Positions 33,570 through 52,987 of a stretch of 64,000 nt of DNA are shown here, in pieces; position 1 is the stretch's first letter, and every line of letters begins with the position of its first letter. This DNA is from a candidate division WOR-1 bacterium RIFOXYB2_FULL_45_9 (GTDB lineage: Bacteria > Margulisbacteria > WOR-1 > O2-12-FULL-45-9 > XYB2-FULL-48-7). The translations under genes and the position numbers were made by a program. The notes beneath the pieces are model-generated. The model saw only the letters and a list, made by a program, of their open reading frames with translations, was not told the DNA's origin and made no database searches. Where the stretch lies: assembly GCA_001771575.1 (NCBI GenBank), contig MEUD01000001.1, positions 506,984 to 570,983 on the forward strand, given 5' to 3'.

Positions 33570-33576
33570 ACTCCTT

Positions 33577-34335: not shown

Positions 34336-34344
34336 ATTTCACTC

Positions 34345-36137: not shown

Positions 36138-37999
36138 AAAACTCCTTTGCCGCTAAGCGCGGACTTCACATATTTGTACAAATTAGCTTCGTAATTATCA
36201 TTGTATTTATAATTTAAAAAGTTAAGGTCCTTTTTAAAGCCCCGGATCGCGTTAGCCAGCTGATCGGCTTGATCGACATAAACAACCGGCTGGTCGATCA
36301 AGCCGCCCCGATAAACCGGCAATTTAAAATGGTTATAGCGGGCCCACTTGTCAAAAAGAATGACCGGCCGTTCATTGAGGAGCGCTTCGTCCAGGGCGGT
36401 CGAAGAGTAACTGACCAGGATATCGGTCGCCGCCAGAACGGCAGCAAATGGGCCCTGACGATTAATAGTGTACTTCTCTGAAGGCGGCAATAACAATTTA
36501 AATTCCTCGTCGCTCAATTCAAAACCGGGATGAACCCGGATAATCAGTCTTGTATTTGGCAACTGGTCGATGGTTCTAACCAAGTCAGCCAAGCTGGCAA
36601 TAAATTCATCAAGCGTCTCCAGAAAATAAAACCGCTCCGTTCCTCTCTTCTTTGAAGTCACGGCGTGAGTAACGATCGTCTCGTCGGCTGAAAACCCGAT
36701 TTTAAACTTAGCGGTCCGCTTCTCGACCCCGTTAAGATCGGCAAAAACGACCGGACCGGTCTTCAATTCGTTCGCTTTTACCCAGGGATATTTCTTAAAA
36801 TACTTCAGGTGAGCTTCCTGGACTGGGGTAGCAAGCGCGACATCGGTATATTCGCTCAACATAAATCCGCGGCATAACTCGACCAGCTCCATTTCGTGGA
36901 CTTCATCGATCGGGACCGGATGCGCACCGTGCGAAACAAAAAGCGACTTGATCCCAACCTGGCGGGAGAGCTCTCCCGCGCCATACCAAAACCCGCGAGA
37001 GAACGGTGAAACGACCAATTTTATTTCCAGACTTTTAACCATACTTTTCAGGGCCGATAGCTGGCCGCTATGCTCGGTAAAATATGGAGCTAGAGCGCCG
37101 ACGGCCTTCTTTTCAATGATCGGAGCCAACGCTACTCCTTTATAATTAAAAGCTACTGTGCCCCGGAAAACAGCGGTTAATTTCTCCCGTAAAATGTCCT
37201 CGTTTGCTTCGCTTCCCTTAAAGTCCAGCCAAAAATGTCGGTTGGCGACGCCAAAGAGGAAAAGCGCCAGATATTTTATCGGCGACCTGACTAATTTCTC
37301 CGGACAGGGAGAAAGAAACGCCACTCCGGGAACCGCCTTGAAAAGTTTTTCTTTCAGTCCGGCAAACCCGTACCCATTCCCCGGGATCAGGACCAATTTT
37401 TTTCTAAAGAACAAGAGATACGCCTTGAGCAAGCAGATCATTAACCAATTGAACCTTGAAGCTTTCTTTTTGCGCTTAGAGACGTTTGATTTTTGCCCGA
37501 CGGCAATATCGATAAACTTCAACGAATGGTTGGCTGCGTAAGTCTTAACTAAGGCTCCTAAATATCGGTCCACCGGTATAATCATCGGGTTCCCAGAGTG
37601 TGGTTCGGCGACCGCGGCATAAAGTTCGACCGGCCCGGCCCGGCGGACGCAATTATCGATAATCTCTATCAGACTCATTAAATGAAAAAGATAGAACCGA
37701 ACGTAAAACTGCAGGTCGGTCAGATATACCGAGGATAAACCGCTAGGATCGGTATATTGAAAGGTCTCATTGATCCGCTCGACCGCCTTCTGGGCACTGA
37801 TGATCATTGCCCGATGAGAATCATTATTAAAATAAGGAAGAGAATTATGGTAGTCGACACCAAACTTCTTTAGATAAGCCTGCAGTTTCGGTTCCAGGGC
37901 AATAATATTAAAAGCGCTTAAAGCCTCGCCCCGCTTCTTAACCTGCCGGCAAAAAGCTTCGTACTCGTCAATAAATTCCAAAAAAACCAGTTTTTTCAT
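36134..37999 (-). CDS. Large hypothetical, putative GT-B transferase for a CMP/CDP-activated donor
   Basis: VSHG, IRVHP, SSTALDEALLNERP. Confidence 0.55.
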   Translation of the reverse strand: MKKLVFLEFIDEYEAFCRQVKKRGEALSAFNIIALEPKLQAYLKKFGVDYHNSLPYFNNDSHRAMIISAQKAVERINETFQYTDPSGLSSVYLTDLQFYVRFYLFHLMSLIEIIDNCVRRAGPVELYAAVAEPHSGNPMIIPVDRYLGALVKTYAANHSLKFIDIAVGQKSNVSKRKKKASRFNWLMICLLKAYLLFFRKKLVLIPGNGYGFAGLKEKLFKAVPGVAFLSPCPEKLVRSPIKYLALFLFGVANRHFWLDFKGSEANEDILREKLTAVFRGTVAFNYKGVALAPIIEKKAVGALAPYFTEHSGQLSALKSMVKSLEIKLVVSPFSRGFWYGAGELSRQVGIKSLFVSHGAHPVPIDEVHEMELVELCRGFMLSEYTDVALATPVQEAHLKYFKKYPWVKANELKTGPVVFADLNGVEKRTAKFKIGFSADETIVTHAVTSKKRGTERFYFLETLDEFIASLADLVRTIDQLPNTRLIIRVHPGFELSDEEFKLLLPPSEKYTINRQGPFAAVLAATDILVSYSSTALDEALLNERPVILFDKWARYNHFKLPVYRGGLIDQPVVYVDQADQLANAIRGFKKDLNFLNYKYNDNYEANLYKYVKSALSGKGVL

Positions 38000-38904
38000 G
38001 CCTGGGCGATCGCTAAAAGCGCGTCACTCCTCCCTTTTCTTTCCAATAACTCGCGGTAGTAGTCGTCGACAGCCGCGTAATCCCTGTTGATTTCAAAGAC
38101 CGGCCGCTCGATCTGCGGCTTCCCGTAAAGGAGCCAGTTGCTTAGGTTGAGGAGCCCGTAGCGCTGGGCGTAAACCAGTTTGATCTTCTTAAAGCCTGCC
38201 GCCGTAAAAGCCCGTTTCAACGTTTGGCCGCTAAAGTAATTCAAGTGGGCCCTGATCCAATAAAAATCGTGATACTCCCTGGAGTTCGCCAGCAACTGGT
38301 CGGATACATTTGGGACCTCGCAGATGAATGTCCCTTTAGGTTTGAGCAGGGTTTTGATCTGCTTAAGAAAGGCGATCGGATCGGTCGTATGTTCAAGGAC
38401 GTGAAAAAGCGTCGCGACATCATACCGGCCGATAATTTCCGCTCCGGCGGCGACGTCGTGTTCCAGGATCTGCGCCGGCGTGTGCGCCTGGGCGATCGTC
38501 CGGCGTTCCCGCGAGATCTCAATCCCTTTGACCCTTTTAAAACCGGCGTCATGCAAAGCGGCGACAAAGAAGCCGTAACCGGCCCCTATATCCAGGACCG
38601 AAACTTTCCTGGGGAATAGTTTTCTGATCAGCGCGACATGGCGATCGGTGTCAAAGCGCTGGTTAGCCGCCAGCTTTTCGTAATCGATCTCTTTGCCGCG
38701 GTTCTTATCCTGCTGGTTTTGATCGTAAAATTCCTTATCATCCTCCGCGGTCGGCTTTGGGAGCAACTGGACGTGACCGCACTGTTGGCAGTCATAAACC
38801 TTGAACTTGGCCTGGTCGTCACGGAGGAAAGATTTGACCAGTTTAAATTTCCCGCCGCCGCAAAGATTACACCGGCTCAATTGTTTGTTCGGCAACTTTA
38901 CCAC
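37996..38904 (-). CDS. Class I SAM-dependent methyltransferase with N-terminal Zn ribbon
   Basis: CNLC..CQQC, LDIGAGYG, FHVLEH, EVPN. Confidence 0.88.
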   Translation of the reverse strand: MVKLPNKQLSRCNLCGGGKFKLVKSFLRDDQAKFKVYDCQQCGHVQLLPKPTAEDDKEFYDQNQQDKNRGKEIDYEKLAANQRFDTDRHVALIRKLFPRKVSVLDIGAGYGFFVAALHDAGFKRVKGIEISRERRTIAQAHTPAQILEHDVAAGAEIIGRYDVATLFHVLEHTTDPIAFLKQIKTLLKPKGTFICEVPNVSDQLLANSREYHDFYWIRAHLNYFSGQTLKRAFTAAGFKKIKLVYAQRYGLLNLSNWLLYGKPQIERPVFEINRDYAAVDDYYRELLERKGRSDALLAIAQA

Positions 38905-40354
38905 CTCTTTTAAACATTTTCATAAGCATCTCAAAACGATGCCGGCGAACTATTCCGGCCTGATAACCGATGAACAGAAAAACACCAAAAAACGCCAGTT
39001 TGATCGGCATCAGCAACAAGAACGGATAATCGATCATTTGCAAATAGAGGATCGAGGAGGAGGCGCCGTAAACCAGCGCGTAAAGAGGGAATATATGTCC
39101 CCATTCATAATCAACTTTGTAAAGGCGCTGGCCAATAACCGCCAAAGTAAAGTTCAATACCAAATAGCTGGTCAGAAACGACAGGGCTCCTCCGATCAGC
39201 CCAAACCTTGGGATCAAAACAATATTAGCCGCGACGTTTGCCAAGGTCCCCAAGATCGTGATCGGAAAGATCAAATACGCTTTCTTGGTATAAGCATATT
39301 GCAGACCGACAAAAACCCCGAATATATTGCTGGCATAGGCGCAAGCAATTATAATAATTACCGGGATCGCGGAGTAATAAGAAGGGGGAGCCATTATCAT
39401 GATGATCTCCCGGGCAAATATAACCGCCATCATAACCGGGACCATGGTCAGGTATAAAAAAACCGTGAACAATCGACCGACCGGCCTTGCCGCGGCGGCC
39501 CCTTTATCAAACACCTCGCGATAAAAAACCGGCTGGAACGAATTCCAAACCGCGCTAATTAAATTAAAAATTATCACCCCGATGTTCTGGCCGATATTAT
39601 AAATACCGACCGCGGAAAGCGAAAGCATGTTATTTAACAGATACTTATCAAAGAACCTGTTAACAAAGCCGGTCAATACTTTTGGGACTAATTGCAGTCC
39701 AAAAAGCAGGTTCTCTCCTAAAATACGTAAATTTATCTTGAAAGAAAAACCTGAATTAAAGATCAGCGCGATAACGATCGTCAGAAAAAAGTTAACGGTC
39801 AAGGTGCTAAGCAACGGCCCCATATATGACATTTTTAAGATCCCAACATAAAAAAGATTCAGCAAACTGATCAGAGTGTTCTGAACAATCATTACAACCG
39901 CGAAAAGCTTTGCTTTCTCCATTCCCTGCAAGATCGTCAAATAAAAGGTGATAATATAAGCAAAATAAACTCCCAAATAAGCGGCCAGGACAGCGTGGCC
40001 ATAGCCGGACTGTCCAATAATCAATCTGGAAATATCATCCTTAAGAAAAAATACCGCAATTGAGCTGACCGACAGCATAAAGTATAAAAATACTTGCGAA
40101 GAAACGACCAGGCCATCAAGCCTTTCTTTATCCAGGCGGTATTGGAAATAATTCCGCTGGGTGGCGCTCACCAGACCAAAGGTCAGGAGCCCGACCGCGA
40201 TCGCCGGAAAAAGATTGGCCATGATGATGATCCCGTAATCGGCCGGCCGCAGGAGCCTGGTCATGATCGGCATGGTGATCAGGCTCAAGGCGTAACCCAC
40301 AAAATTGGGGGCAGTGTAAATAATGATGTTTCGAATGTTTTTTTCTTTAAGCAA
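38867..40354 (-). CDS. wzx: Oligosaccharide flippase
   Basis: TRLLRPADYG, DKYLL, VGIY, LIPRFGLIG; 12-14 TM. Confidence 0.85.
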   Translation of the reverse strand: MLKEKNIRNIIIYTAPNFVGYALSLITMPIMTRLLRPADYGIIIMANLFPAIAVGLLTFGLVSATQRNYFQYRLDKERLDGLVVSSQVFLYFMLSVSSIAVFFLKDDISRLIIGQSGYGHAVLAAYLGVYFAYIITFYLTILQGMEKAKLFAVVMIVQNTLISLLNLFYVGILKMSYMGPLLSTLTVNFFLTIVIALIFNSGFSFKINLRILGENLLFGLQLVPKVLTGFVNRFFDKYLLNNMLSLSAVGIYNIGQNIGVIIFNLISAVWNSFQPVFYREVFDKGAAAARPVGRLFTVFLYLTMVPVMMAVIFAREIIMIMAPPSYYSAIPVIIIIACAYASNIFGVFVGLQYAYTKKAYLIFPITILGTLANVAANIVLIPRFGLIGGALSFLTSYLVLNFTLAVIGQRLYKVDYEWGHIFPLYALVYGASSSILYLQMIDYPFLLLMPIKLAFFGVFLFIGYQAGIVRRHRFEMLMKMFKRGGKVAEQTIEPV

Positions 40355-40895
40355 CAGACCGATCCTTTTTTAAAAGTCCGACTATTAATCCATCGACCAT
40401 TTTGTTTTTCAACCGATACCGCTCGCGAAGTATCGCCTCGATCTTGAACCCGGCCTTCTTAAAGATCGCGATCGATCCTAGATTATTGGCGTAGATCCCA
40501 GCTTCGATCCGTTTGAGCTTCAATTTTTTAAAACCGTAAGCGACCAGCAGTTTGATCGCTTCAGTCCCGATCCCCTTTCCCCAAAACGATTTTCGGCCAA
40601 CGGCAATACCGATCACCCCGTAGCCGTGCCGATGATTAAGATCGGAAAAAGAAATATTGCCGATGTGCAAACCGGCCGCCCGGTCAAAGATCCCGAAAAG
40701 CAATTTACGATCGCACCCCGCAAAGGAACGGACATAGGCTTCTACGGTCTTCTTCGTCTGCTTAACGTAACGCGACTCCAAATACTGGTTGACCTCGGGA
40801 TCGTTCAGCCAGTTGATGTAATCAGAGGTAATATCGCTGACCTGAAATTCCTTCAAATAAATATTTTTCCCTAAAATGATCAGCGGTTTCTTCAT
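40347..40895 (-). CDS. GNAT N-acyltransferase (RimJ/RimL-like)
   Basis: HIGNI, WGKGIGTEA, NLGSI..FKKAGF. Confidence 0.85.
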   Translation of the reverse strand: MKKPLIILGKNIYLKEFQVSDITSDYINWLNDPEVNQYLESRYVKQTKKTVEAYVRSFAGCDRKLLFGIFDRAAGLHIGNISFSDLNHRHGYGVIGIAVGRKSFWGKGIGTEAIKLLVAYGFKKLKLKRIEAGIYANNLGSIAIFKKAGFKIEAILRERYRLKNKMVDGLIVGLLKKDRSVA

Positions 40896-41932
40896 ATCAT
40901 CTCCCGGCGGACGGGCGTCCCCTTTTTGATATCCCGATTGACCTTTTTGCCAAGCAGACCGTCATAGAATTTAGGCGCCAAACCATAACCCGGCCGGATC
41001 ACCCGCAGGTTCTGTTTATTAAAAGTTTCCCCCGCTTTTATATCCTGAGCGACATAAAGCGACCGCTTATAGATCAGCGATCTTTTCTCTTCGGCGGTAG
41101 GCTCATAGCTCACCTTGCCCAATGCTTCCCAGGCCCGCCCGCTTTCTTCGACCAGCTGTTTCAATTCGGCCGGCTCGAGCGAAAAAGCGGCGTCCACTCC
41201 GCCATCAGCGCGAGATAAAGTGAAGTGCTTCTCAATAACTGTCGCGCCCAGGGCAACAGCCGCGATCGCCGCCCCCAACCCTAACGTATGGTCCGAGATC
41301 CCCGCCTGGCATTTAAAGGTTTGCCGGAGACTAGGAATCGTTAATATATTGGAGTTTTTTGGGGAAGAAGGATATGAGCTGGTGCATTTGAGCAAGACCA
41401 GGTCGCGGCAACCGGCACGGCGAGCGGCTTGGACCGTTTCCTTAAGTTCGGCAAAAGTCGCCAGACCGGTGGAAAGAATTATCGGCTTACCGGTCTTGGC
41501 AACCTTGCGGATCAGCGGCAGATCGGTATTCTCAAAAGAAGCGATCTTATAAAAAGGAACTTTCAGTTCTTCCAGAAAATCGACCGCCGTTTCATCAAAA
41601 GGAGTGCTAAAACCAATTATCCCCAATTTCTTGCACAGCTTAAAGATCGGTTTGTGCCATTCCCAAGGCGTCGCCGCTTTTTGGTAAAGGTCGTAAAGGG
41701 AAGAACCGTACCAGGGACTTTTCTTATCGCCAATGAAAAATTCACCTTTGGCAAGGTTAAGCGTCATGGTATCGGCGGTATAAGTCTGGAGTTTGAGGGC
41801 GTGGGCCCCCGCTTTCGCCGCCGCTTCAACGATCGCCAGCGCCCGGTCGAGGGACTGATTATGGTTCCCCGACATTTCCGCGATAACGAACGGCCGGTGC
41901 CCGGCCCCGATCTTGAACTTATCAAGGCTCAT
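40892..41932 (-). CDS. pseI: Pseudaminic acid synthase
   Basis: IAEMSGNHN, KLQTYTADT, TPWEWH, KIASFE, DGGVDAAFS, IRPGYGL. Confidence 0.9.
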   Translation of the reverse strand: MSLDKFKIGAGHRPFVIAEMSGNHNQSLDRALAIVEAAAKAGAHALKLQTYTADTMTLNLAKGEFFIGDKKSPWYGSSLYDLYQKAATPWEWHKPIFKLCKKLGIIGFSTPFDETAVDFLEELKVPFYKIASFENTDLPLIRKVAKTGKPIILSTGLATFAELKETVQAARRAGCRDLVLLKCTSSYPSSPKNSNILTIPSLRQTFKCQAGISDHTLGLGAAIAAVALGATVIEKHFTLSRADGGVDAAFSLEPAELKQLVEESGRAWEALGKVSYEPTAEEKRSLIYKRSLYVAQDIKAGETFNKQNLRVIRPGYGLAPKFYDGLLGKKVNRDIKKGTPVRREMI

Positions 41933-42390
41933 TATCTTAACTCCTTTGCTTTGGCCAGGACCTGAATTTGGTCTCCGGCTTTGTTTTGATAATCAAATAA
42001 TTCGTTGAAGCCGGCCTTCTTGAACGCTTTGATCGAGCCGATATTGTTCGTTTTGGCCCGGGCGATAAGCAAATCGGTCATTGGGATCGCCGCCAGAACC
42101 TTAGCGCCAAATCCCCGGCCCCTCATTTCCGGCGCGAGGTTAATGCCGACTTCCCGGGAAAAATCGTTCAACCGGTCAAAACGCAAAAGGCCGATCTTCC
42201 GCCCGCCAGACTCGACGATCAACAGTTCGCGCTCCGGGTCAGCCAGCGACTTTTGAAACCACTTCTGATGATCGACGAAACCGATCTCCGCCGAAGAAAA
42301 ACTGGCCCGCCGAGTCTCCTCGTCATTGCGCCAGCGATAAACGTCGGCGCAATCGTCCTGGGTGGCCGGCCTCATTATTATTTCAGACAT
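41932..42390 (-). CDS. pseH: GNAT acetyltransferase (PseH-like)
   Basis: WRNDEETR, HQKWF, RGRGFG; adjacent to pseI. Confidence 0.7.
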   Translation of the reverse strand: MSEIIMRPATQDDCADVYRWRNDEETRRASFSSAEIGFVDHQKWFQKSLADPERELLIVESGGRKIGLLRFDRLNDFSREVGINLAPEMRGRGFGAKVLAAIPMTDLLIARAKTNNIGSIKAFKKAGFNELFDYQNKAGDQIQVLAKAKELR

Positions 42391-43141
42391 GCTTTAAGAC
42401 CTCCAAGTCGGCGACAAAATCGTTAAGGTTGGCCGGATCGCTTTTAACCGTTTCCACCGTGATCCAGCTTTCCGCCGGGATCAGCGCCAGCAATTTAGGC
42501 AGATCGTAATCCCCCCGGCCGAAATGGCGGTGGGAATCGCGATCGCTTTGGCTGTCACCGTCGGTCAAATGGAACAGTTTCGGCTTAAGGGCTAAATATT
42601 CATTCAGATAAGCGAAAGGTTCCCGGCGCTGGGCGTTGGCCGAACAGATCGCGTGCCCGATATCAAGGCAAAAACCGGCTCCAGTTTCCCTAATAATCTG
42701 CGCGATCGCTTCCGGCGAATGGCCGTTGCAGATCTTTTGGCCGTCAACCGTCACGTACGGTTTGTTCTCGATCACGATCCGCCGGTCGCCCATGAGTTTA
42801 AGCTGGCGGACCGTTTCAGCTTCCGTTCCGCCGATCCCCGGATGAAAGATCACTATTTCAGAGCCAAGCTCGTCGGCAAAATGAAACGCTTCACCAGCCA
42901 GGCGCTGATTATCGGCGGCCGCAGAAGGAACCGCCAAATTTAACCCATGCCCGTAATGCGCGGCGTGAATAATGACCGGCACCCCTTCATCTTTCAGCGC
43001 CCGCCACAGCGGCAAAGCTTCGGCTGTTTCCGGCACGACATAAAGCTCCAGAAATTGGTAAGTCCCTTTCTGGAAAAGCCGCCGCGCTTCCGGCAGGTAT
43101 TGCCGGTTGGTCGACCATAGCTTTAAGCCGTAATTAAACAT
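42383..43141 (-). CDS. Metal-dependent TIM-barrel protein (AP endonuclease 2/xylose isomerase-like)
   Basis: HAAH, FHPG, IENKP, CLDIGH, FHLTD, DSH. Confidence 0.75.
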   Translation of the reverse strand: MFNYGLKLWSTNRQYLPEARRLFQKGTYQFLELYVVPETAEALPLWRALKDEGVPVIIHAAHYGHGLNLAVPSAAADNQRLAGEAFHFADELGSEIVIFHPGIGGTEAETVRQLKLMGDRRIVIENKPYVTVDGQKICNGHSPEAIAQIIRETGAGFCLDIGHAICSANAQRREPFAYLNEYLALKPKLFHLTDGDSQSDRDSHRHFGRGDYDLPKLLALIPAESWITVETVKSDPANLNDFVADLEVLKHV

Positions 43142-43149
43142 CTTGCTCC

Positions 43150-44451
43150 TTAGGTTAAGCGTTTGAAGCCGGAATGGCAGACCGGCCCTTTCAGGCATTT
43201 TTTCGGATCGCCGGCCGCCGCTTTGGCCAGGAACGCAAAGACTTCATCGATCGCCTGGCAATAACTGTCGACCTGTTTCGCCTGATGGGCGAAGGAAGCG
43301 TAAAAAGCGGTTGTCGCCAGAAAACCAAGTTCCAGCATCCGTTGAGTATATAAAGTTTTCATGACCAGCGGTTCAGCGGCCTTGAAAGAAAAATGGCCGA
43401 GCGGATCGATCCCACCGATCTCGATCGGCAGATTATATTTAGCGGAGGCCGCTTGCCAGGCCGCTTTGACCTGCCGCCCAACTTTGATCAGATGGGCCGG
43501 GACATTCTCTTTTTCCAGTTTGTTGATCGTCGCCAGCGAGGCGACCGGACCAAGCCGTTCGGTCCAGTAAGTACTGCTGATAAAACTATCCTGCGCCCGT
43601 TCCATGACCGATTGGCGGCCAATGATCGCCGCCATCGGATAACCGTTGCTGATCGCTTTGCCGAAGACCGCGATATCAGGCTCGAGGCCGTAAAGCAGAT
43701 GCGCTCCACCGATATTAAGCCGCCAGCCCGAGGTAATCTCGTCCAAGATCAGGACGATCCCCTTCTTGGTCGCGACCTCCCGGACGGTCTGTAAGAATTT
43801 TTTGTCCGGTTCGTCGTTCCTGATCGTTTCCATGACGATCGTTCCGACTTCATTGTCTTCGACTAGTTTCAAAAAGGCTTCGGTATCGTTATATTTAAAA
43901 GCTAACGCTGTCCCGGCCAGAGCGCGCGGCACGCCGAGCGGATTGAGGCCAGGGAGGAGATGCCCGTCAAGCGAGCGGTCATCGGAGAGGTTCGCCGCCA
44001 AGTACCAATCATGCCAGCCGTGATAGCCGCAAAAGACAACTTTATCTTTCCCCGATTTCGCCCGGCCGATCCGGACCGCGACCCCAACCGCTTCGCCGCC
44101 GCTCCGGGCGTAGCGGACCATCTGGGCCCAGGGATGAAGCTGGACCAATTTTTCCGCCAGTTCAACTTCTTCCGGCACGTTCAGGGTCGTCATGCTCCCA
44201 TTATCAACCGCCGCTTTGACCGCTTTGTTAACGTCTTGGTCGGCGTAACCGAGGATACAGGCCCCGATCCCCATGTAACTGACGTCAAGATACTTCTTCC
44301 CGTCCAGGTCCCAAACCTCGCACCCTTGCGCTTTGTCATAATAAGCCGGCCAGAAATCCGGCAGAAATAGTTCGGGTCGTTTGGAAAGGAGCTGGGTCCC
44401 GCCCGGGATCAATTTCTTCGCTTTTTTATAGAGATCTTGTGATTTGCCCAT
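43150..44451 (-). CDS. Class III PLP aminotransferase (glutamate-semialdehyde aminomutase-like)
   Basis: IPGGTQLLSK, GYHGWHDW, DEITSGWR, FGKAISNG. Confidence 0.9.
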   Translation of the reverse strand: MGKSQDLYKKAKKLIPGGTQLLSKRPELFLPDFWPAYYDKAQGCEVWDLDGKKYLDVSYMGIGACILGYADQDVNKAVKAAVDNGSMTTLNVPEEVELAEKLVQLHPWAQMVRYARSGGEAVGVAVRIGRAKSGKDKVVFCGYHGWHDWYLAANLSDDRSLDGHLLPGLNPLGVPRALAGTALAFKYNDTEAFLKLVEDNEVGTIVMETIRNDEPDKKFLQTVREVATKKGIVLILDEITSGWRLNIGGAHLLYGLEPDIAVFGKAISNGYPMAAIIGRQSVMERAQDSFISSTYWTERLGPVASLATINKLEKENVPAHLIKVGRQVKAAWQAASAKYNLPIEIGGIDPLGHFSFKAAEPLVMKTLYTQRMLELGFLATTAFYASFAHQAKQVDSYCQAIDEVFAFLAKAAAGDPKKCLKGPVCHSGFKRLT

Positions 44452-44461
44452 TGGTTCGCTC

Positions 44462-45334
44462 CTATCTCTTCAGTTCCGGGAAAAGCCCGCCAAGCTTCGC
44501 GATAAAATCGCGCGGCTCGACCAGCCGTTTCTGTTCATCCAGAATAATATGCTTCTTCCCCGACTGAACGATCGAATACAGCGGTTTTTCGGTAAGGTTG
44601 GCGCTCTGTTGTTCGCACCCTTTGATCCCGACCTGCATGTTCATTCTGGCGACGTCGGGATTATCGTCGAGCCAGGTATAGACCTCGCGCAGGTCGAGCG
44701 GCCGCCCCTTATAAAGCGCTTCGTATATTTTAGTGATCATATCGATATCGATCTTTTCGTCGATCGTCAGCCGGTATTCCGGCCGGCAAAGGTCGATGTC
44801 GATCTCGATCCCCCGGGACTTAAACTCTTCGAGATGCTCTTTAATGTAAAGCGAGATCGCCGCTCCCCGGTAATGTTTATGGACTTCGCGCATCGCGTCG
44901 AGGGAAAGCAGTTCCGATAAGGTCCCCTGGATCATCGTCATATTGGAAACGTATACCAGGTCCTGATAATTCTTCTTAAATTCTTCGACAAAACGCGATG
45001 CACTGTCGATATCAAAGATCGGCGAGTCGCAGGTCACCCGGATAAAAGCGTCAGCCCCTTCCCGTTCGCAAAGTTGAATGTGGCGATCGACGATATCTTG
45101 TTCCGCGCCGGCAAACCAGCCGCAGCCCAGGCTTTCCGCTTCTTCGATCAATGGCTTATTTTTGGGATCGTTCGAGGTCGCCAAAAACACTCCGTCCAAC
45201 CCTTGCACCGCTTTCATCCTTTCAACGTGATGGGCAAAGATCGACTTGCCAGCCATCTTTAAAAGGACTTTCCCCGGCAAACGGGTCGAAGACATCCGGG
45301 CTGTGATGGCGCCGATAACCTTTTTATTCGCCAT
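44462..45334 (-). CDS. SpsF-like cytidylyltransferase (candidate PseF function)
   Basis: ARMSSTRLPGKVL, RVTCDSP, YRLTID. Confidence 0.85.
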   Translation of the reverse strand: MANKKVIGAITARMSSTRLPGKVLLKMAGKSIFAHHVERMKAVQGLDGVFLATSNDPKNKPLIEEAESLGCGWFAGAEQDIVDRHIQLCEREGADAFIRVTCDSPIFDIDSASRFVEEFKKNYQDLVYVSNMTMIQGTLSELLSLDAMREVHKHYRGAAISLYIKEHLEEFKSRGIEIDIDLCRPEYRLTIDEKIDIDMITKIYEALYKGRPLDLREVYTWLDDNPDVARMNMQVGIKGCEQQSANLTEKPLYSIVQSGKKHIILDEQKRLVEPRDFIAKLGGLFPELKR

Positions 45335-45336
45335 AT

Positions 45337-46320
45337 TTAGATCCTTTCCCATTTTTTTGCGGCGGCCGCCCGGTCGGCGGCAAGCGCCAATTTAAGAACA
45401 GGGATATTTTTTTCGATCGAGTTGAACGTTTCCCGTCCGGCGGCGGCGCAGGCCAGAAAATATTTGATCTCGTCGACGTACATCTGGTTGTATAAAACTT
45501 CCAGTTCCATCTTTTGCCAGGCCCATTCCGGCTTTTTGACACTGATCGTGCCGATCCGGCCAAAAGCAAAATCCCAGACTGCCGTCCCCTCCTCGCTCAC
45601 CACTTTACAGCGCCGGGAGTAACCATGTTGAAGATAGTCCAAATGAATGGTCGCCACCACGCCGGATTTGAACCTGACGATCAGCTCAACGTGGTCTTCG
45701 GTGTCCATCTTTAAATTAGAGAGCATCCCTTTATCGCAAATGACCTCGACCGGTTCGCCAAAGAACCAAACCGCGTAATCAAGCTCGTGAATTGCGTCGA
45801 AAATCAAGTTGCCACCCATTTTCCGGTTCGCCATATAATGGGTTTGATAATCCTTTTTCGCGAAGGGGAGAAAAAAACCGAATTCCAGGTTCGCCCAGAG
45901 GATCCGTTTGAATTCCGGATCGGTGGTCAGGATTTCGTGGAGGAGGGCGACCGCCGGGTGAAAACGGAGGTTGCAACCGACCATCGTCACCAATTTTTTT
46001 TCCTTGACCAAGGAGGCCAGTTCCGCGACCCCGTCGAGCGAAATAGCCAGCGGTTTTTCAATGAAGAGATGGCACCCGGCGGTGGCGCAAGCCTTAGCCG
46101 GCTCTAAATGCTGATTGCTGAAAGTGCAAATGAAGGCGGCCTCCGGTTTAACTTTCGCTAACGCTTCTTCAAGCGAGAGAAAAGTTCCCCGGGTCCGGTC
46201 GGCAATTTTTTTTAAATTCTCGGCGTTCAAATCGACCGCGTAGACATCGTGCCCCAGTTCGGCCAGATTCTCGATATGCCGGCCGCCGATCGAACCGGCG
46301 CCAACTACCAGGGCCTTCAT
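45337..46320 (-). CDS. Gfo/Idh/MocA oxidoreductase
   Basis: GAGSIGGRH, FIEKP, NLRFHP, HELDY. Confidence 0.9.
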   Translation of the reverse strand: MKALVVGAGSIGGRHIENLAELGHDVYAVDLNAENLKKIADRTRGTFLSLEEALAKVKPEAAFICTFSNQHLEPAKACATAGCHLFIEKPLAISLDGVAELASLVKEKKLVTMVGCNLRFHPAVALLHEILTTDPEFKRILWANLEFGFFLPFAKKDYQTHYMANRKMGGNLIFDAIHELDYAVWFFGEPVEVICDKGMLSNLKMDTEDHVELIVRFKSGVVATIHLDYLQHGYSRRCKVVSEEGTAVWDFAFGRIGTISVKKPEWAWQKMELEVLYNQMYVDEIKYFLACAAAGRETFNSIEKNIPVLKLALAADRAAAAKKWERI

Positions 46321-47819
46321 TTTTTTTCTCCCTGGACGGTTTTTTGTTCTTTGGCCGCCCGTTTCCGGTAAAAAGCGGTCAGGAATTTCTTGAAAAGCAG
46401 TTTGTCGATTGGTATCTTGTAGAACATAAAATGATTGCGAAGCCCGGCTATCTTAATAAACAGGGTGTTGATCAGCCGATCTCGCCCATTATCGAGCTGA
46501 TGGTTGCCGACCCGCGATTCCGATTCCATGTTTAGATAGTAAGCGGCGCTTTCGGAAAATTTGCCGTTCACCTGCCAGGGACGGACATATTCGGACGCGG
46601 TGTACATGTCAATGACCGCCCGGCTGGTCCATTCTTTAAAATCTTTCGGTTCGGTCAGATACCCTTCTTTTAACAGTTGTTGGGTCAATTCGCATTTTGG
46701 ATATGGGCGAAAAGTCCCGACCCCGCAGGTAAACAATGGGTAGCGCCGCAATTTATTGATAAACGCGACCGTCTGCTTGATGTCGCCAAGCTTTTCCCCC
46801 GGGATCTCCAGGATAAAAGATGACCGCGGGATAATCCCGTGTTCATCGCATTTTTTGACCGCGTGTTCCGCTTGTTGGGGAGTGATCCCCTTCTTCATCA
46901 GTTTAAGGGTGTGCGGCGAGCCAGATTCGATCCCCAGCGTCAACTGGATCAAGCCAGACTCTCTCGCCAGGGCGAGCGTATCGTCGTTAAGCATCGTTTC
47001 ATTGAAATAATCGACACGGCATTCCCCGTCCCAGGTGATATTCAAGCCAAGTTTAATGATCCCGGCGCAGATCGCCCGGACCCGGTCGCAATCGACGAAG
47101 AAATTGTCGTCCAGTATCTTGAGGTGGGTCAGCCGGTACTTTTTGACGATCTGTTCGATCTCGGCCAGGACCTTGGCGGCGCTTTTTTTCCGGTAGCGCC
47201 GGTTATCGGCCACAACATTGATGCAGAAAGTGCATTTTGACGGACAGCCCCGACTGCTCTCGTACGGGAGCCAGCGCATCGGTTGGGGAACGAATTCCGA
47301 AAGTTTATCGGTGAGATAACTGTTGATGAACGTCTCAATATGCTCTTCCAGGCTGTAGTCCGGAAAAGGCAACTTTTCCATATCGAGGATCTGTTTCGGA
47401 AAGATCTTCTTCTCGATCTTCCGGCCCTCTTTCAGGGCAGTCGCGATCTCCAGAATATGATCTTCCCCTTCCCCGGCGATCACGTAGTCAACATACTCGC
47501 ACTTGGCCATCTGTTCCGGAAAAAGAGTGCAATGCCATCCGCCCACAACCACGGGAACATTGGTATTTTCCTTGATGAATTTGATGGTTTCGTAGGCATC
47601 GGGGGCCTCCGAGGTCAGGATCGCGACGGCCGCCATCAAGGCCCCTTCCAGTTCTTTCTTGATGGTGACAAGATGGTCCTGCTCAAAGGCGCTATTAATA
47701 ATTTTTATCTCAAAGCCGGCGGCATGGAGCTTGGAACCGAGCAAGATCAGGTTAAGAGGCGGATAATTATTATAGTTATAAACGTTCTTTGGCCGGATCA
47801 GGACGATCTTATCTGCCAT
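46317..47819 (-). CDS. B12-binding radical SAM protein (class B methyltransferase-like)
   Basis: PPLNL, GGWHCT, GEGE, SSRGCPSKCTFC, DDNF, GIESGS. Confidence 0.9.
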   Translation of the reverse strand: MADKIVLIRPKNVYNYNNYPPLNLILLGSKLHAAGFEIKIINSAFEQDHLVTIKKELEGALMAAVAILTSEAPDAYETIKFIKENTNVPVVVGGWHCTLFPEQMAKCEYVDYVIAGEGEDHILEIATALKEGRKIEKKIFPKQILDMEKLPFPDYSLEEHIETFINSYLTDKLSEFVPQPMRWLPYESSRGCPSKCTFCINVVADNRRYRKKSAAKVLAEIEQIVKKYRLTHLKILDDNFFVDCDRVRAICAGIIKLGLNITWDGECRVDYFNETMLNDDTLALARESGLIQLTLGIESGSPHTLKLMKKGITPQQAEHAVKKCDEHGIIPRSSFILEIPGEKLGDIKQTVAFINKLRRYPLFTCGVGTFRPYPKCELTQQLLKEGYLTEPKDFKEWTSRAVIDMYTASEYVRPWQVNGKFSESAAYYLNMESESRVGNHQLDNGRDRLINTLFIKIAGLRNHFMFYKIPIDKLLFKKFLTAFYRKRAAKEQKTVQGEKK

Positions 47820-48942
47820 TGACGCACTCCTTTACCACCGTAATCACTGTTTCGACTTCCTGATCGCTCATCTTCGGATAGAGCGGCAGAGTGATGGTGC
47901 TTTCATAATAAGCTTCGGCCCGTGGACAAAGCCCTTTCTGATAACCTAATTGGCTATAGTACGGCTGCCAGTAAACGGGGATGTAATGAACGTTAACACC
48001 AAGTCCTTTGGCGCGCAGGGCGTCAAATATCTTTCGCCTGTTCCCTTTGACCATGATCGGATAAATATGCCAGGCGGAACGGCAATCGGTTTTTCCCTGA
48101 ATGGTCGCCAGCCCGGGCACATTTTTAAAAGCGGCCTGATAGCGGGCGACTATCTCCCGCCGACGGGCGACAAATTGGTCGAGCTTTTTCAGTTGGCTCA
48201 TCCCCAACGCCGACTGAAAATCGGTCAGGCGGTAGTTAAAACCAAGCGCCTGCATTTCGTAAACCCAGGGGCCGGGATCTTTTTCGGCAAGAAGTTTTGG
48301 GTCGCGGGTGATCCCATGGGTGCGGAAGGTTTTAAGTTTTTCATAAAAGTCTTTATTGTTCGTCAAAACCATCCCCCCCTCGCCGGTGGTAATGTGCTTG
48401 ACCGCGTGAAAGCTAAGGATGGTCATGTCAGAATACTGGCCGGCGCCGATCTTTTTCCCCTGATAATCGGCACCCAGCGCGTGGCAAGCGTCTTCGATCA
48501 CCGTTAAATTTCGCTCTTTGGCCAATTTAGAGAGGGCCGCCATTTCGCAAGGCTGTCCGGCATAATGGACCGGCAAGATCGCTTTGGTCTTGGCGGTAAT
48601 TTGTCCGGCAACGGCGGTTGGATCAAGATTGATGGTCTGGGGATCGATGTCGGCAAAGAGCGGCTTGGCGCCGCAGTAAAGGACGGCGTTGGCGGTCGCT
48701 ACAAAGGTGATCGGGGAAGTGATCGCTTCATCCCCCGCTTTGAGCCCGGCGGCAAAACAGGCGCCGTGCAGGGCCGAAGTCCCGGAGTTGAATGCGACCG
48801 CGTATTTGGCGCCGCAGTAGCCGGCCGTTTTAGCTTCAAATTCGTCGACCAGCGGCCCCTGTGTCAGGTAAGCGGTTTTTAGCGCCTGGGCGACCGCCGC
48901 GATATCCTCATCATCAACCCATTGCGTCGCGTATGGGATCAT
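47809..48942 (-). CDS. pseC: UDP-4-amino-4,6-dideoxy-N-acetyl-beta-L-altrosamine transaminase
   Basis: MIPYATQ, LTQGP, SFHAVKHITTGEGG, LGFNYR, VHYIP. Confidence 0.9.
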   Translation of the reverse strand: MIPYATQWVDDEDIAAVAQALKTAYLTQGPLVDEFEAKTAGYCGAKYAVAFNSGTSALHGACFAAGLKAGDEAITSPITFVATANAVLYCGAKPLFADIDPQTINLDPTAVAGQITAKTKAILPVHYAGQPCEMAALSKLAKERNLTVIEDACHALGADYQGKKIGAGQYSDMTILSFHAVKHITTGEGGMVLTNNKDFYEKLKTFRTHGITRDPKLLAEKDPGPWVYEMQALGFNYRLTDFQSALGMSQLKKLDQFVARRREIVARYQAAFKNVPGLATIQGKTDCRSAWHIYPIMVKGNRRKIFDALRAKGLGVNVHYIPVYWQPYYSQLGYQKGLCPRAEAYYESTITLPLYPKMSDQEVETVITVVKECVNGR

Positions 48943-48944
48943 GG

Positions 48945-50172
<1,228 letters not shown>

Positions 50173-50179
50173 ATAATAT

Positions 50180-50208
50180 AGTATAGGAGGTTATTCAGGG
50201 GCTGTCAA
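50180..50208 (-). promoter_or_regulatory. Sigma70-type promoter heading the glycan operon
   Basis: TTGACA-17 bp-TATACT, 7 nt before the HTH ATG. Confidence 0.8.
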
Positions 50209-50211
50209 GTC

Positions 50212-50249
50212 CTAGTCAGATCTAGTCATTACTAGTCTTTCCACTAGTT
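50212..50249 (-). repeat. 10-bp-phased direct repeats (GACTAG x3 plus AACTAG)
   Basis: CTAGTC at 50212, 50222, 50232 and CTAGT at 50244 on the + strand. Confidence 0.8.
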
Positions 50250-51330
50250 GAGCGATCGCCATTGAAGCGGTCAGACCTGGGGATTCGATCCCGATCAGAT
50301 TGATAAAACCGGGATAACCGTTAGCCGACTCCTCTTTAATAACAAAGTCGCGGAAACCGTCGTCCGGGCCCTGAAGTTTTGGCCTGATCCCGGAAGTATC
50401 CGGGCTAAGCATCTCTTCTTTCAACCAGGGGAAATAGGTCCTGGCCGCGTGGTAAAACTCCGTCCGCTTAGCCGGGTCGACCTCATAATTTAAATTCTCG
50501 CCATAATGGGCATCAGGCCCTAAACGGATCTGTCCGGTCAGGTCTAGCGTGGCGTGGACTCCAAGTCCATATCCTTTCTTATGAGGGACCGGATAAACCA
50601 GATGGTGAATTTTCCCTTTGGCCCCGGGAATGGAAAAGTAATCTCCTTTGCATGGATAAAGATTATAATGCAGTTTTTTGACATCGAAACCGGCCAATCC
50701 AGCAACCTGGTCCGAACCCAGCCCGGCCGCGTTAATAACCTGTTCAGCCAGGATTTTTTCGCCGTTCGAAGTTTCAATTATATATCCACCGGATTGTTTA
50801 CTGATACCGGTAACTTCATGATTAAAAGCAAAAAGCGTTCCATTGGCCTGCGCCTGCTGGTAGTAATATTTCATTAAACCGTGGGAATCAATGATCCCGG
50901 TCGTGGCCGACATGATCCCGGTCAGGGCAAAAACATTCGGTTCCAGCTTTTTAACTTCGGCTTCGGTCAGCAGGCTGATCCCCGGAACGCCGATCGCCTG
51001 GCAATTCTGATAGATATTCTCGATCTCTTTTTTTTCTTCTTCATTGGTGGAAATGATCACTTTTCCGCAATTTTGGTATTTGATCCCGGCCGCTTTGCAA
51101 AGTTGATAAAGGAGCGGGTTTCCCTCAAGGCATAGTCGGCTCTTCAGAGTATTGGGAGGATAATAAATACCGGCGTGGATAACTTCGCTGTTCCGACTGC
51201 TGGTCTCCTGGCCGAAACCGTCATGTTTCTCAAAGACTATCAGATCACCGTCATGTCGGTCACTTAACACCTTGGCAATGGCCAGGCCGACAACGCCGGC
51301 GCCGATTATTGAAACAGCCACCTTTTCCAA
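50212..51330 (-). CDS. FAD-dependent oxidoreductase (L-2-hydroxyglutarate oxidase family)
   Basis: IGAGVVGLA, TSSRNSEVIHAGIYY, GLGVHAT, GIRPKL, GIESPGLTAS. Confidence 0.88.
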   Translation of the reverse strand: MEKVAVSIIGAGVVGLAIAKVLSDRHDGDLIVFEKHDGFGQETSSRNSEVIHAGIYYPPNTLKSRLCLEGNPLLYQLCKAAGIKYQNCGKVIISTNEEEKKEIENIYQNCQAIGVPGISLLTEAEVKKLEPNVFALTGIMSATTGIIDSHGLMKYYYQQAQANGTLFAFNHEVTGISKQSGGYIIETSNGEKILAEQVINAAGLGSDQVAGLAGFDVKKLHYNLYPCKGDYFSIPGAKGKIHHLVYPVPHKKGYGLGVHATLDLTGQIRLGPDAHYGENLNYEVDPAKRTEFYHAARTYFPWLKEEMLSPDTSGIRPKLQGPDDGFRDFVIKEESANGYPGFINLIGIESPGLTASMAIAQLVERLVMTRSD

Positions 51331-51333
51331 TGA

Positions 51334-52230
51334 CTAGACCTTTTTATAAGTGGAGCTTGAAATATTCTGCCAATATTCAAGAAAAAACGCCAAAAACACC
51401 GAACAAAACGCACCAAAAACAAATCCAATCACAAAATTAAGCACGATTTTATGCTTCAACGGTTTTACTGGTCTTTCCGCTGGATCAATTATTGAGAACG
51501 GGGTCAACTCTTTTGACTCGTCAAGCTTTGCAGACTCATACTCTTTTCGCAACATTACGTATGTTGAATTTTGGATCTCATATTCCCGTTCCAATCTTTT
51601 CAGCTCAACACCTTGCAGTTCATTCGGATCACTGGATAGAAGAGTGAATTTCTTTATCGCGTTTTCAGCGAGCCGCAGTTCGCCCTCAATCCTGGGTAAT
51701 TGACTTTCAATATATTCTTTTTTCTTTCTGGCTTCAGTATAATTAATTTTTTTCCAATATTGTTCCCCTGCCGCGACCATCGCATTGGCTATATCGGCGG
51801 ATAGAATGGGATCTTCAGTTAAAACCTTTATTTCCATTAAATCGGTACCGGATATGTCAACCATCGACATCAATGATTTGATCAATTCCTGTTTTTTAAT
51901 TTCCGGGGAATCCCATCCTGTTATTTTCTTGTCCAAACGAAGCGAATCAAATACTATCTCCGCCACGCTACGGCTTTCCATGATCTTCGGAAATTCGGCC
52001 GCTCCACTCCCTGTTTTAAAACCCAACATACTCGCCAATTGACCGGTAGCCGATGAGCCCGAACCGGTAGTCTCTTTTAATAAGATCGATACTTTCGCCT
52101 CATATACGTCTTTCCTTGACAAAGAAGGTAAACCAAAGAACAACATCGCGCCAACAGTGATAACCAGTACCAGTGGCCACCTTTTGATTACTACCGCCAA
52201 ATAATCGCGAAGATTAATATCTTCATCCAT
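51334..52230 (-). CDS. Wzz/GumC-like chain-length determinant (no kinase domain)
   Basis: INLRDYLAVVIKRW, two TM segments, coiled coil, IIDPAERPVKP. Confidence 0.82.
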   Translation of the reverse strand: MDEDINLRDYLAVVIKRWPLVLVITVGAMLFFGLPSLSRKDVYEAKVSILLKETTGSGSSATGQLASMLGFKTGSGAAEFPKIMESRSVAEIVFDSLRLDKKITGWDSPEIKKQELIKSLMSMVDISGTDLMEIKVLTEDPILSADIANAMVAAGEQYWKKINYTEARKKKEYIESQLPRIEGELRLAENAIKKFTLLSSDPNELQGVELKRLEREYEIQNSTYVMLRKEYESAKLDESKELTPFSIIDPAERPVKPLKHKIVLNFVIGFVFGAFCSVFLAFFLEYWQNISSSTYKKV

Positions 52231-52246
52231 CTCTGGTTGCTCCTTT

Positions 52247-52987
52247 CTATCTAGCAAACGTGTTATACAATGCAACAAAAGTCAGGATCATCGAAGAAAA
52301 ACTGCCGAAATCGGAAAAATAGAAGAATTGCGCCGGGACATTGATAACATCACCGGGCTCGATCGCCATATCATCTTTCGCGTTGCCATTAAAAATAACC
52401 TCCGAACCATTAATATTGTATTTTTTGTCCTTTCTGGTAATAGTAGAAAAAGTAATGTTCGCTCGCGGAGTCGGACCTCCGGCATAGCTGATGTAATCGG
52501 AATATTTCCTCTCCGGGATATATTCAAACCGCCCCGCCTTGGCAACTTCCCCGTAGACCGACACATACTTCTTCTCGCCAACATACAAAGGCTTATCTTC
52601 CGACCCCGTTAAATATATTTGAACTTTACGCGGCTGGATAAGTCTAAAAGAAAAAAGATATTTTTCCGAATATACCCCTTTTATCTTATCGCTGATCAAT
52701 TTTTTCGCTTCAGGAAGGGTCTTCCCCAAAAGCAACATTTCTCCAACTTTGGGAAAAAAGATCTTTCCATCCGGGCCAACGGTAAACTTATAATTCAAAG
52801 AAAGGTCGTTCTCACCGACTATTAAATTCGCTTCAACCATATCCCCCGGCGCCAGTTTATAAACCGATTCATCAATATTATCTCCAACTATGTATCCGTC
52901 ATTCATATCCGCCACTGAACTATCTAATTGCGGAAAAACAGGAGAAACAAGGGTAAGAATCAGGCCAATTATTATATATTTTTTCAT
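52247..52987 (-). CDS. Polysaccharide export protein (Poly_export + SLBB; short Wza-like)
   Basis: Signal peptide, YKLAPGD, VGPDGKIFFPKVG, VYGEV, AGGPT, PGDVINVP. Confidence 0.82.
   Translation of the reverse strand: MKKYIIIGLILTLVSPVFPQLDSSVADMNDGYIVGDNIDESVYKLAPGDMVEANLIVGENDLSLNYKFTVGPDGKIFFPKVGEMLLLGKTLPEAKKLISDKIKGVYSEKYLFSFRLIQPRKVQIYLTGSEDKPLYVGEKKYVSVYGEVAKAGRFEYIPERKYSDYISYAGGPTPRANITFSTITRKDKKYNINGSEVIFNGNAKDDMAIEPGDVINVPAQFFYFSDFGSFSSMILTFVALYNTFAR

Follow-up and report, generated by a model that had tools for sequence, protein, structure and literature searches.

A 10-bp-phased array of TGAC-core repeats as the candidate operator of an HTH_17 protein at the head of a glycan operon in a candidate division WOR-1 bacterium

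In Patescibacteria (the candidate phyla radiation, CPR) and Margulisbacteria, genomes are small, regulators few, and genetic systems lacking, and to our knowledge almost nothing is known about the control of transcription in either group. Here we analyze a locus in a 64,000-nucleotide stretch (the window; all coordinates below refer to it, and all features lie on its minus strand unless stated otherwise) of the genome of the candidate division WOR-1 bacterium RIFOXYB2_FULL_45_9 (assembly GCA_001771575.1, contig MEUD01000001.1, positions 506,984 to 570,983), a member of the Margulisbacteria. At this locus, a gene encoding a small helix-turn-helix (HTH) protein of the HTH_17 family stands at the head of a long surface-glycan operon, and its promoter is preceded by three copies of the hexamer GACTAG in a row (Table 1). 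An earlier interpretation by a model that had seen only the letters and a list of open reading frames (ORFs), which we call the sequence-only reading, had taken these copies for the operator of the adjacent HTH protein. We discuss first the array and its promoter, then their counterparts ahead of homologous genes, the protein and its operon, and finally the regulation that this organization would allow.

The repeat array and its promoter

From a distal partial copy, ACTAG, through the three GACTAG copies, successive starts lie 12, 10, and 10 bp apart; a further step of 11 bp leads from the third copy to the GAC of the -35 hexamer. The three copies take up the last 26 nt (50237-50212) of the upstream gene for a flavin adenine dinucleotide (FAD)-dependent oxidoreductase, which ends in ...gaa aga cta gta atg act aga tct gac tag, with the TAG of repeat 3 (50214-50212) serving as its stop codon; as the copies fall in three different codon frames, they do not amount to a peptide repeat. 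Much of this had been noted in the sequence-only reading, and its exact 10-bp spacing, the 11-bp step to the TGAC of the -35 hexamer, and the three frames are borne out by the sequence and by the reading of ORF 50212-51330. Its fourth copy fared less well: the distal ACTAG is present in the window, but the other three genomes of the genus have not kept it, and one of these has a GACTAT unit 11 bp upstream instead. A repeat finder run with a seed of 7 and a minimum length of 10 did not report the GACTAG family, the units being too short for this method.

Table 1. Features of the HTH_17 locus in window coordinates, ordered from the operon to the upstream export genes
Feature	Coordinates	Strand	Remarks
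Co-directional operon	29144..49934	-	About 21 kb, pseudaminic acid/polysaccharide; gaps between ORFs of at most 13 nt
HTH_17 gene, 74 amino acids	49948..50172	-	Excisionase family, BldC/Xis-like winged helix; presumed binder of the array; first operon cistron
-10 hexamer TATACT	50180..50185	-	7 nt before the ATG
-35 hexamer TTGACA	50203..50208	-	Continues the phase of the array and can be read as its fourth unit
Repeat 3, TGACTAG	50212..50218	-	GACTAG at 50217-50212; about -46 to -40 relative to the predicted transcription start
Repeat 2, TGACTAG	50222..50228	-	GACTAG at 50227-50222; about -56 to -50 relative to the predicted transcription start
Repeat 1, aGACTAG	50232..50237	-	GACTAG at 50237-50232; about -66 to -60 relative to the predicted transcription start
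Distal partial copy ACTAG	50244..50248	-	12 bp 5' of repeat 1; probably outside the conserved array
DAO-family FAD oxidoreductase	50212..51330	-	PF01266, E 1.4e-65; L-2-hydroxyglutarate-oxidase-like, below cut-off
wza-like (Poly_export/SLBB) and wzz-like (Wzz/GNVR) export genes	51334..52987	-	Own promoter-like site at 53111-53083

The -35 and -10 hexamers are separated by a 17-bp spacer and match the promoter consensus at 11 of 12 positions in a promoter scan. Because the -10 hexamer ends only 7 nt before the ATG at 50172, the mRNA is predicted to be leaderless, or nearly so with a leader of 1-2 nt; no Shine-Dalgarno sequence lies ahead of this ATG, and no in-frame start codon occurs 5' of it before a stop. 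The oxidoreductase stop and the -35 hexamer are only 3 bp apart, and a scan found no terminator-like sites between them. Contigs from four DNA sequencing runs were compared with the window over 49900-50500; two of them are identical to it, being possibly its source, and two reach only 50359-50500, and these contigs contain no variants, indels, or joints, a result that is silent on rare forms. A search of sequencing runs turned up none recorded as RNA that contains the locus.

Two further sequence features near the array may be mentioned. A single TGACTAG in the opposite orientation (plus strand) lies at 51331-51337, at the junction of the wzz stop and the oxidoreductase start. An inverted repeat of 13 nt (50178-50190 versus 49939-49951, 226 nt apart and 85% complementary) would let the -10 region, which contains CCTCC, pair with the AGGAGG Shine-Dalgarno sequence of pseB; the pairing is possible only in read-through transcripts from upstream, not in a leaderless mRNA, is missing from one related genome (G002), and may be due to chance.

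The tetramer CTAG, contained in each repeat, is rare in this organism. The window contains 23 copies, against 249 expected from mononucleotide composition and 32 from a Markov model, and 4 of the 23 are in the array; the genome of 1,668,697 bp contains 631, against expectations of 6501 and 1255, respectively, which is an approximately 10-fold depletion relative to base composition. The sequence-only reading had remarked that CTAG looked scarce elsewhere in the window, and the computed expectations make this scarcity even stronger than it had supposed. Of the 13 genome sites at which two or more CTAG lie within 20 bp of each other, this array is the only one with more than two, and the pattern GACTAG-N4-GACTAG has a single genome match, which is the array itself, whereas the reversed control has none. 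In this genus, the putative operator is thus written with the rarest palindromic tetramer of the genome, and a GATC stands between repeats 2 and 3; GATC, for its part, is over-represented in the window (776 observed, 526 expected from the Markov model and 249 from mononucleotide composition).

Phased TGAC repeats ahead of homologous genes

Homologues of the HTH protein were found in 33 of 61 related genomes (25 of the 36 high-quality ones), and a species-representative genome collection yielded 239 matching stretches, from which 79 loci, mostly of Patescibacteria lineages, were kept; the upstream DNA of 109 loci in all gave 89 distinct 100-bp regions. The closest named record is a metagenome-assembled genome of Candidatus Margulisiibacteriota with a 99% identical protein, and many relatives are labeled Saganbacteria. 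Labels such as "uncultured Gammaproteobacteria" and "Desulfotomaculaceae", found on L041, L057, L072, L075, and others, and on L040/L084, may be unreliable, as the HTH proteins and arrays at these loci resemble those of records labeled Patescibacteria or Margulisbacteria.

In the 89 regions, TGAC cores on the sense strand are spaced at 10 bp in 81 pairs, at 20 bp in 31, at 30 bp in 12, and at 21 bp in 9, with no more than 4 pairs at every other distance within 4-32, and the antisense strand has at most 1 pair at any distance. Two or more cores chained at 10-11 bp are present in 64 of the 89 regions for TGAC and in 75 for TGA[CT], compared with 13 and 99, respectively, of 4701 control windows of 100 bp from the same loci, in which a chain on either strand was counted. 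The search for phased repeats upstream of orthologues had been proposed with the sequence-only reading as a check on its operator, with their absence as a sign against it; these 75 regions answer the check in favor of the operator. Among the 14 regions without a chain, nine have a TGACAC-type array farther 5', at about 100-240 nt in eight of them and at about 490 nt in L065. In L095, L096, and L065, all from Patescibacteria, the stretch from the distal TGACAC array to the start codon contains other motifs with a period of about 10 bp (AACTT-, ATTCG-, and AATTT-type). What is conserved is TGAC followed by two or three lineage-specific bases, and not CTAG itself.

Two layouts can be distinguished. 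In the Margulisbacteria/Saganbacteria type, two or three units, the third often degenerate, are followed in phase by the -35 hexamer, which is exactly TTGACA in 28 of 30 loci, and the distance from the -10 hexamer to the ATG is 6-7 nt in 13 and at most 14 nt in 24 of the 30. In Patescibacteria, the consensus TTGACAC-(C/T)TT is repeated two or three times, and inspection by eye suggests that the first unit is the -35 element and that the last, often TGATAC, stands at the -10 position. The overlap of the array with the 3' end of an oxidoreductase gene recurs outside this lineage, at L010, L011, L030, and L032, where the stop codon is the TGA of a unit or lies just past the last unit; in many other homologues, the repeats are intergenic or follow another gene (wzz).

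Within the genus (n = 4 genomes), selection probably acts on the array as DNA, since no variation is seen in 33 of the 38 columns of the array plus -35 hexamer (50240-50203), compared with 29 of 49 columns of coding sequence directly upstream. Repeat 2 is invariant in all four genomes, as is the GACTA of repeat 1, whose final base is A in one of them. One genome (G001, locus L004) has an 11-bp insertion amounting to one extra unit, four instead of three, and its oxidoreductase ORF stops at the earlier GACTAG and leaves the remaining units intergenic, an instance of unit-wise copy-number change within the genus. The shifted stop codon is the one observation in favor of a quite different explanation, namely that the repeats arose by chance or as a by-product of coding, or form a slipped-strand tract whose phase variation alters the C-terminus of the upstream enzyme. 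We consider this explanation barely credible: chance is opposed by the rarity of CTAG, the uniqueness of the paired hexamer in the genome, and the excess of chains over the control windows, a coding origin by the three frames and by the intergenic or post-wzz position of so many homologous arrays, and slippage by the fact that three imperfect 10-bp units are a poor substrate for it and, more weakly, by the lack of length variants in the contigs.

The array is also close to exclusive to its gene. The genome under study (1.67 Mb) contains two chains of three or more TGAC at 10 or 11 bp, one of which is this array, and the only three-unit chain of GAC[TA]A[GC]. Across the 61 related genomes, TGAC-N6-TGAC-N6-TGAC has 13 matches, against 6 for the reversed control, and 9 of the 13 lie on the same strand as, and no more than about 120 bp 5' of, a homologue of the HTH gene; of the other four, one was examined more closely and falls within a coding frame. 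TGACAC-N4-TGACAC occurs in all of five Patescibacteria genomes (0.6-1.0 Mb), twice in one of them and once in each of the others, and 5 of these 6 matches are the site ahead of the HTH gene. Across two phyla, only the HTH gene accompanies the array consistently, and the genes after it vary. At the Margulisbacteria/Saganbacteria loci, one protein type is followed by PseB/PseC and a second by wza/wzz, and among the 50 directly downstream genes of the remaining, mostly Patescibacteria, loci are 11 for GDP-mannose-dehydratase/epimerase proteins, 8 for ABC transporters, 6 for GT1 glycosyltransferases, and 5 each for Polysacc_synt_2 proteins, flippases, and ABC-2 exporters. The association with surface-glycan operons is widespread.

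The bases after the core differ with the protein, and in particular the second position past TGAC. Among the 52 units at 20 loci of proteins that we designate FR after their recognition helix (S-D-ST-FR-RL), this position has A in 42 and C in none; among the 110 units at 41 loci of the xK proteins of Patescibacteria (ST-xK-RL), it has C in 101 and A in 1; and among the 31 units at 12 loci of the FL proteins (ST-FL-RL), C or T in 27. Units of the type TGAYA[CT] form the majority at none of the 20 FR loci, at 37 of the 41 xK loci, and at 8 of the 12 FL loci, and lineage-specific tails (TAG, AAG, TAC, or AC) are kept within each array. Since the protein class changes only once on the protein tree, we make no statistical claim for this covariation. 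Single assemblies can hold two array types, each beside its own paralogue (L043/L056, L040/L084, G025, and G014). The second paralogue type, with the recognition helix S-(Q/R)-STFL-RL and TGACA(C/T) repeats, heads a wza-wzz export operon in other Saganbacteria/Margulisbacteria (L050, L052-L056, L074, and L084; G025 and G014), sometimes in the same genome as the PseB-linked type.

This pattern of linkage bears on two further explanations. In the first, another factor, for example a response regulator of the OmpR/PhoB type, which likewise works with direct repeats of roughly one helical turn beside the -35 element, binds the array, and the HTH gene is merely the first gene that it regulates. Direct repeats abutting a -35 element are typical of response regulators (discussed in PMC5859096), and yet the HTH gene is the only constant partner of the array in two phyla while the downstream genes differ, the array is nearly unique in each genome and found at this gene, and two array types in one genome each stand beside their own paralogue; no search for a second factor was made, and we regard its existence as improbable. 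In the second, there is no dedicated regulator, and the TTGAC-like units act directly on RNA polymerase, recruiting or holding it as -35-like or UP-like elements and thereby tuning promoter strength. The units do share TGAC with the -35 consensus, and in Patescibacteria the first unit is the -35 element. Against this, no -10-like hexamer lies 16-18 bp past repeats 1-3 in the window, where the scan lists a single promoter; a general promoter device would be expected at other promoters, while the array is essentially confined to the HTH family; and the tails conserved within each array extend beyond the bases contacted by sigma. We therefore hold a role for polymerase alone to be very improbable.

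The HTH_17 protein and its operon

The HTH gene lies at 556934-557155 in genome coordinates and is present in one copy. Its product matches Pfam HTH_17 (PF12728) over residues 8-55 with 50 bits (gathering score 27) and the excisionase-family domain TIGR01764 of NCBIfam with 40.7 bits (cut-off 28.8), and its first methionine is invariant in 25 homologues. The family comprises at least 1191 sequence clusters at E <= 1e-10, and the names among the 120 clusters listed are generic ("excisionase family", "helix-turn-helix domain-containing", "hypothetical"). Two more specific assignments were rejected. Identity with MamR (NF040990) was set aside at 39.1 bits against an equivalog cut-off of 100, and a link to a bacterial tyrosine kinase (BY-kinase), for which a conserved Tyr66 and the adjoining Wzz/GNVR gene had been considered, was dropped because the best genome match to TIGR01007, at 58 bits, stays below the cut-off of 108.

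An AlphaFold model of the protein (predicted local distance difference test score, pLDDT, 84.8) has helices at residues 11-18 and 22-30, a two-stranded wing at 37-46, a helix at 47-54, and a short C-terminal helix at 60-73. In this model, the 74 residues make up a single winged HTH domain with neither the coiled coil through which MerR proteins dimerize nor an effector domain, and the protein has no sensor domain. It superimposes on Pukovnik Xis (Z 7.5, root-mean-square deviation (rmsd) 2.1, 55 residues), BldC (6AMA_A, Z 7.0, rmsd 1.6, 53 residues; 6AMK_B, Z 6.8, rmsd 1.3, 50 residues), RdfS (Z 6.1), and lambda Xis (Z 5.5-5.7); the top Foldseek match is BldC (E 0.0097), and the structure-based identity to BldC is 20-24%. 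The prediction of a complex of three HTH copies gave scores of 0.29 and 0.12, below the mark of 0.42, and was taken neither for nor against oligomerization.

The excisionase-family match and the place of Xis among the best fold matches raise the question of a recombination site, with the HTH protein as an excisionase (recombination directionality factor) and the repeats as arm-type sites on a mobile glycan island. The context speaks against it: the genome has six Phage_integrase (PF00589) matches, the nearest of them about 179 kb away from the HTH gene, the wza/wzz/pseB synteny is kept across families, the array is fused to a consensus promoter, and the contigs of the four DNA runs contain no joints and neither excised circles nor att junctions, rare forms being invisible to contigs. 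An excisionase in this context was accordingly rejected, and we consider a recombination site extremely improbable.

Downstream of the HTH gene, pseB starts at the ATG at 49934, 13 nt past the HTH stop, and is preceded by a Shine-Dalgarno sequence. The operon continues with genes for a DegT/PseC aminotransferase, a B12-dependent radical S-adenosylmethionine (SAM) protein, a GFO oxidoreductase, a cytidylyltransferase, a class-III aminotransferase, a TIM-barrel protein, a GNAT protein, NeuB, a second GNAT protein, a Wzx-type flippase, and a methyltransferase, followed by seven further ORFs (29144-37999), of which the domain scan covered one, without a Pfam match. The PseB equivalog match reaches 543 bits (cut-off 407.75), and the assignment of a pseudaminic-acid set rests on PseB together with DegT, NeuB, CTP_transf_3, and GNAT domains, with PseB as the one member tested at the equivalog level. 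The link to glycan synthesis drawn in the sequence-only reading is thereby substantiated at this locus, where the gene heads PseB, PseC, NeuB, and flippase genes, and also at its homologues, which head genes for sugar nucleotides, glycosyltransferases, flippases, and ABC exporters. Inside this nonulosonic-acid operon, a 621-amino-acid ORF (36134-37999) has no Pfam match at E <= 1e-5, and the B12-binding radical-SAM enzyme gene lies at 46317-47819; together they suggest an unusual sugar modification. On the other side, the promoter-like site of the wza-like and wzz-like genes (53111-53083) has no phased array.

Proposed autoregulation and relation to known systems

With a probability of roughly 0.7, we take the array and the in-phase -35 hexamer to be the operator of the adjacent HTH_17 protein, serving an autoregulation that is probably repressive. 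That this protein is the binder we infer from the linkage, the fold, and the relation of unit tail to recognition helix. HTH monomers would bind one to a unit, all in a single orientation and on one face of the helix, head-to-tail by analogy with BldC, Xis, and RdfS, and presumably with cooperativity; occupancy, starting at about -63, -53, and -43, would extend to the -35 hexamer, where the bound protein would compete with sigma region 4 and lower its own leaderless mRNA, which would continue into the operon of about 21 kb. The module would thus be a dedicated, single-target autoregulator setting the level of a costly glycan operon. The operator of the sequence-only reading survives in part in this form, with a filament and a switch as possible behavior, on the strength of the phased repeats before homologues, their near-exclusivity to those promoters, and the fold; the motif that is conserved is based on TGAC rather than CTAG.

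The sign of the regulation may also be the reverse. The HTH protein might bind the array and activate, contacting the C-terminal domain of the alpha subunit or sigma region 4 from about -43, -53, and -63 in the manner of a class I or class II activator, with a positive feedback that could make glycan expression bistable. The strong units of the Margulisbacteria type do lie 5' of the -35 hexamer and not over it, and positive autoregulation would suit the "switch" invoked in the sequence-only reading. Several features nevertheless favor negative autoregulation: a promoter that matches the consensus at 11 of 12 positions should fire without an activator, and the hexamer is the exact TTGACA at nearly all loci of its type; the -35 hexamer is itself an in-phase unit; and the units of Patescibacteria overlap the -35 element, the spacer, and the -10 element, which is hard to reconcile with activation. 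Repression is favored at odds of about 2:1, and we regard activation as an unlikely, if serious, alternative.

A number of observations weigh against the autoregulatory operator as proposed, in whole or in part. Sites centered near -43, -53, and -63 are also usual for class I and class II activators, and the TGAC core of the units is the core of the -35 hexamer, such that a role related to RNA polymerase is compatible with the sequence. Five of the 89 regions (L007, L013, L018, L022, and L024) have no TGA[CT] chain within 500 bp, degenerate 10-bp-phased units being visible by eye in L007 and L022. The single change of protein class on the tree leaves one independent pair and no statistical power for the match of repeat type and protein type. 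Z scores of 6-7.5 are middling for small domains, and a profile of the family found no PDB sequence at E <= 1, for which reason the binding mode is borrowed by analogy. To these points is added the unlikeness of the unit to that of BldC, described below.

A broader view, which we offer tentatively and consider possible rather than probable, is that Patescibacteria and Margulisbacteria/Saganbacteria share an ancient, portable cassette for operon heads, made up of the HTH_17 gene and its 10-bp TGAC array, in which the operator units are at the same time the promoter, and a sensorless mini-regulator, encoded by a leaderless first cistron, competes base for base with sigma region 4 and so sets the dose of cell-surface glycan operons. 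The -35 hexamer would itself be a unit and, in Patescibacteria, the last unit would be the -10 element. Since the array lies within the 3' end of the upstream gene without a terminator, the bound filament might also act as a roadblock that shields the operon from read-through, and paralogues with diverged recognition helices and unit tails would be orthogonal copies of the device in one cell.

For groups of organisms so poor in regulators, the autoregulatory operator would supply a regulator family for which the operator is predicted precisely, a single target is predicted as well, and the physiological output, surface-glycan operons, is clear. The family is directly testable in vitro, or in Escherichia coli, with synthetic DNA, and the natural pairs of paralogue and operator lend themselves to specificity swaps. 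Our literature search, which covered sources other than subscription journals and supplements, found neither the module, nor a function for the family, nor TGAC-type phased repeats at HTH_17 genes.

The protein is a member of HTH_17 that, by its modeled fold and presumed mode, would work like BldC, Xis, and RdfS. In the accessible portions of the respective reports, BldC is described as binding direct repeats head-to-tail in variable number, with a 9-bp unit, AATTXXXX(C), that is read largely through how the minor groove is shaped, and as having a many-gene regulon (PMC5859096); its protomers lie one DNA turn apart on the smeA-ssfA promoter, and Xis-type proteins likewise assemble cooperatively and head-to-tail on DNA (PMC11963761; for the latter also the title of entry 2IEF). 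Like the BldC of Streptomyces (6AMA, 6AMK), the HTH protein is a small, single-domain winged HTH without coiled coil or effector domain, and it fits BldC to 1.3-1.6 Å over 50-53 residues. It differs in having an extra C-terminal helix at 60-73 and no detectable sequence match to the BldC chains, in its 10-bp unit with a GC-containing TGAC core and a lineage-specific tail in place of the 9-bp AATTXXXX(C), and in its one array per genome, at the regulator's own promoter, in place of a regulon of many genes. A strict BldC orthologue was rejected because unit length and sequence differ and no sequence match is found. The comparison with BldC and Xis made in the sequence-only reading thus stands as regards superposition, which is best on the head-to-tail binders Pukovnik Xis, BldC, and RdfS, and fails as regards the unit, which is unlike the AT-rich one of BldC.

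With lambda Xis (2IEF/1RH6) and Pukovnik Xis (4J2N), phage excisionases of the kind that builds micro-filaments on direct repeats, and with RdfS (8DGL), the protein shares its fold, and it matches the excisionase-family model TIGR01764; unlike them, it has no recombinase partner or att site nearby, and it belongs to a chromosomal, syntenic glycan operon with an array fused to the promoter. A precedent for an Xis-like protein acting purely as a repressor on direct repeats is Gp36 of mycobacteriophage D29, described in the accessible part of its report as an excisionase homologue, HTH_17/MerR-like and monomeric, that represses the genes downstream through its binding to direct repeats, with a GCGGC motif and a set of repeats in gp59.2 spaced at 15-19 nt (PMC12266134). 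Gp36 is a phage protein, whereas the system described here is cellular, strictly spaced at 10 bp, autoregulatory in the proposed reading, and conserved in two phyla. What appears to be new, in comparison with these systems, is a strictly 10-bp, oriented array with a TGAC core that is fused to, or constitutes, a consensus promoter; a single predicted target per genome, at the regulator's own, predicted leaderless gene; and the conservation of this cassette at the head of glycan operons in Margulisbacteria/Saganbacteria and Patescibacteria, which together would extend the head-to-tail mode of BldC and Xis to a sequence-specific, 10-bp-phased, and autoregulatory design.

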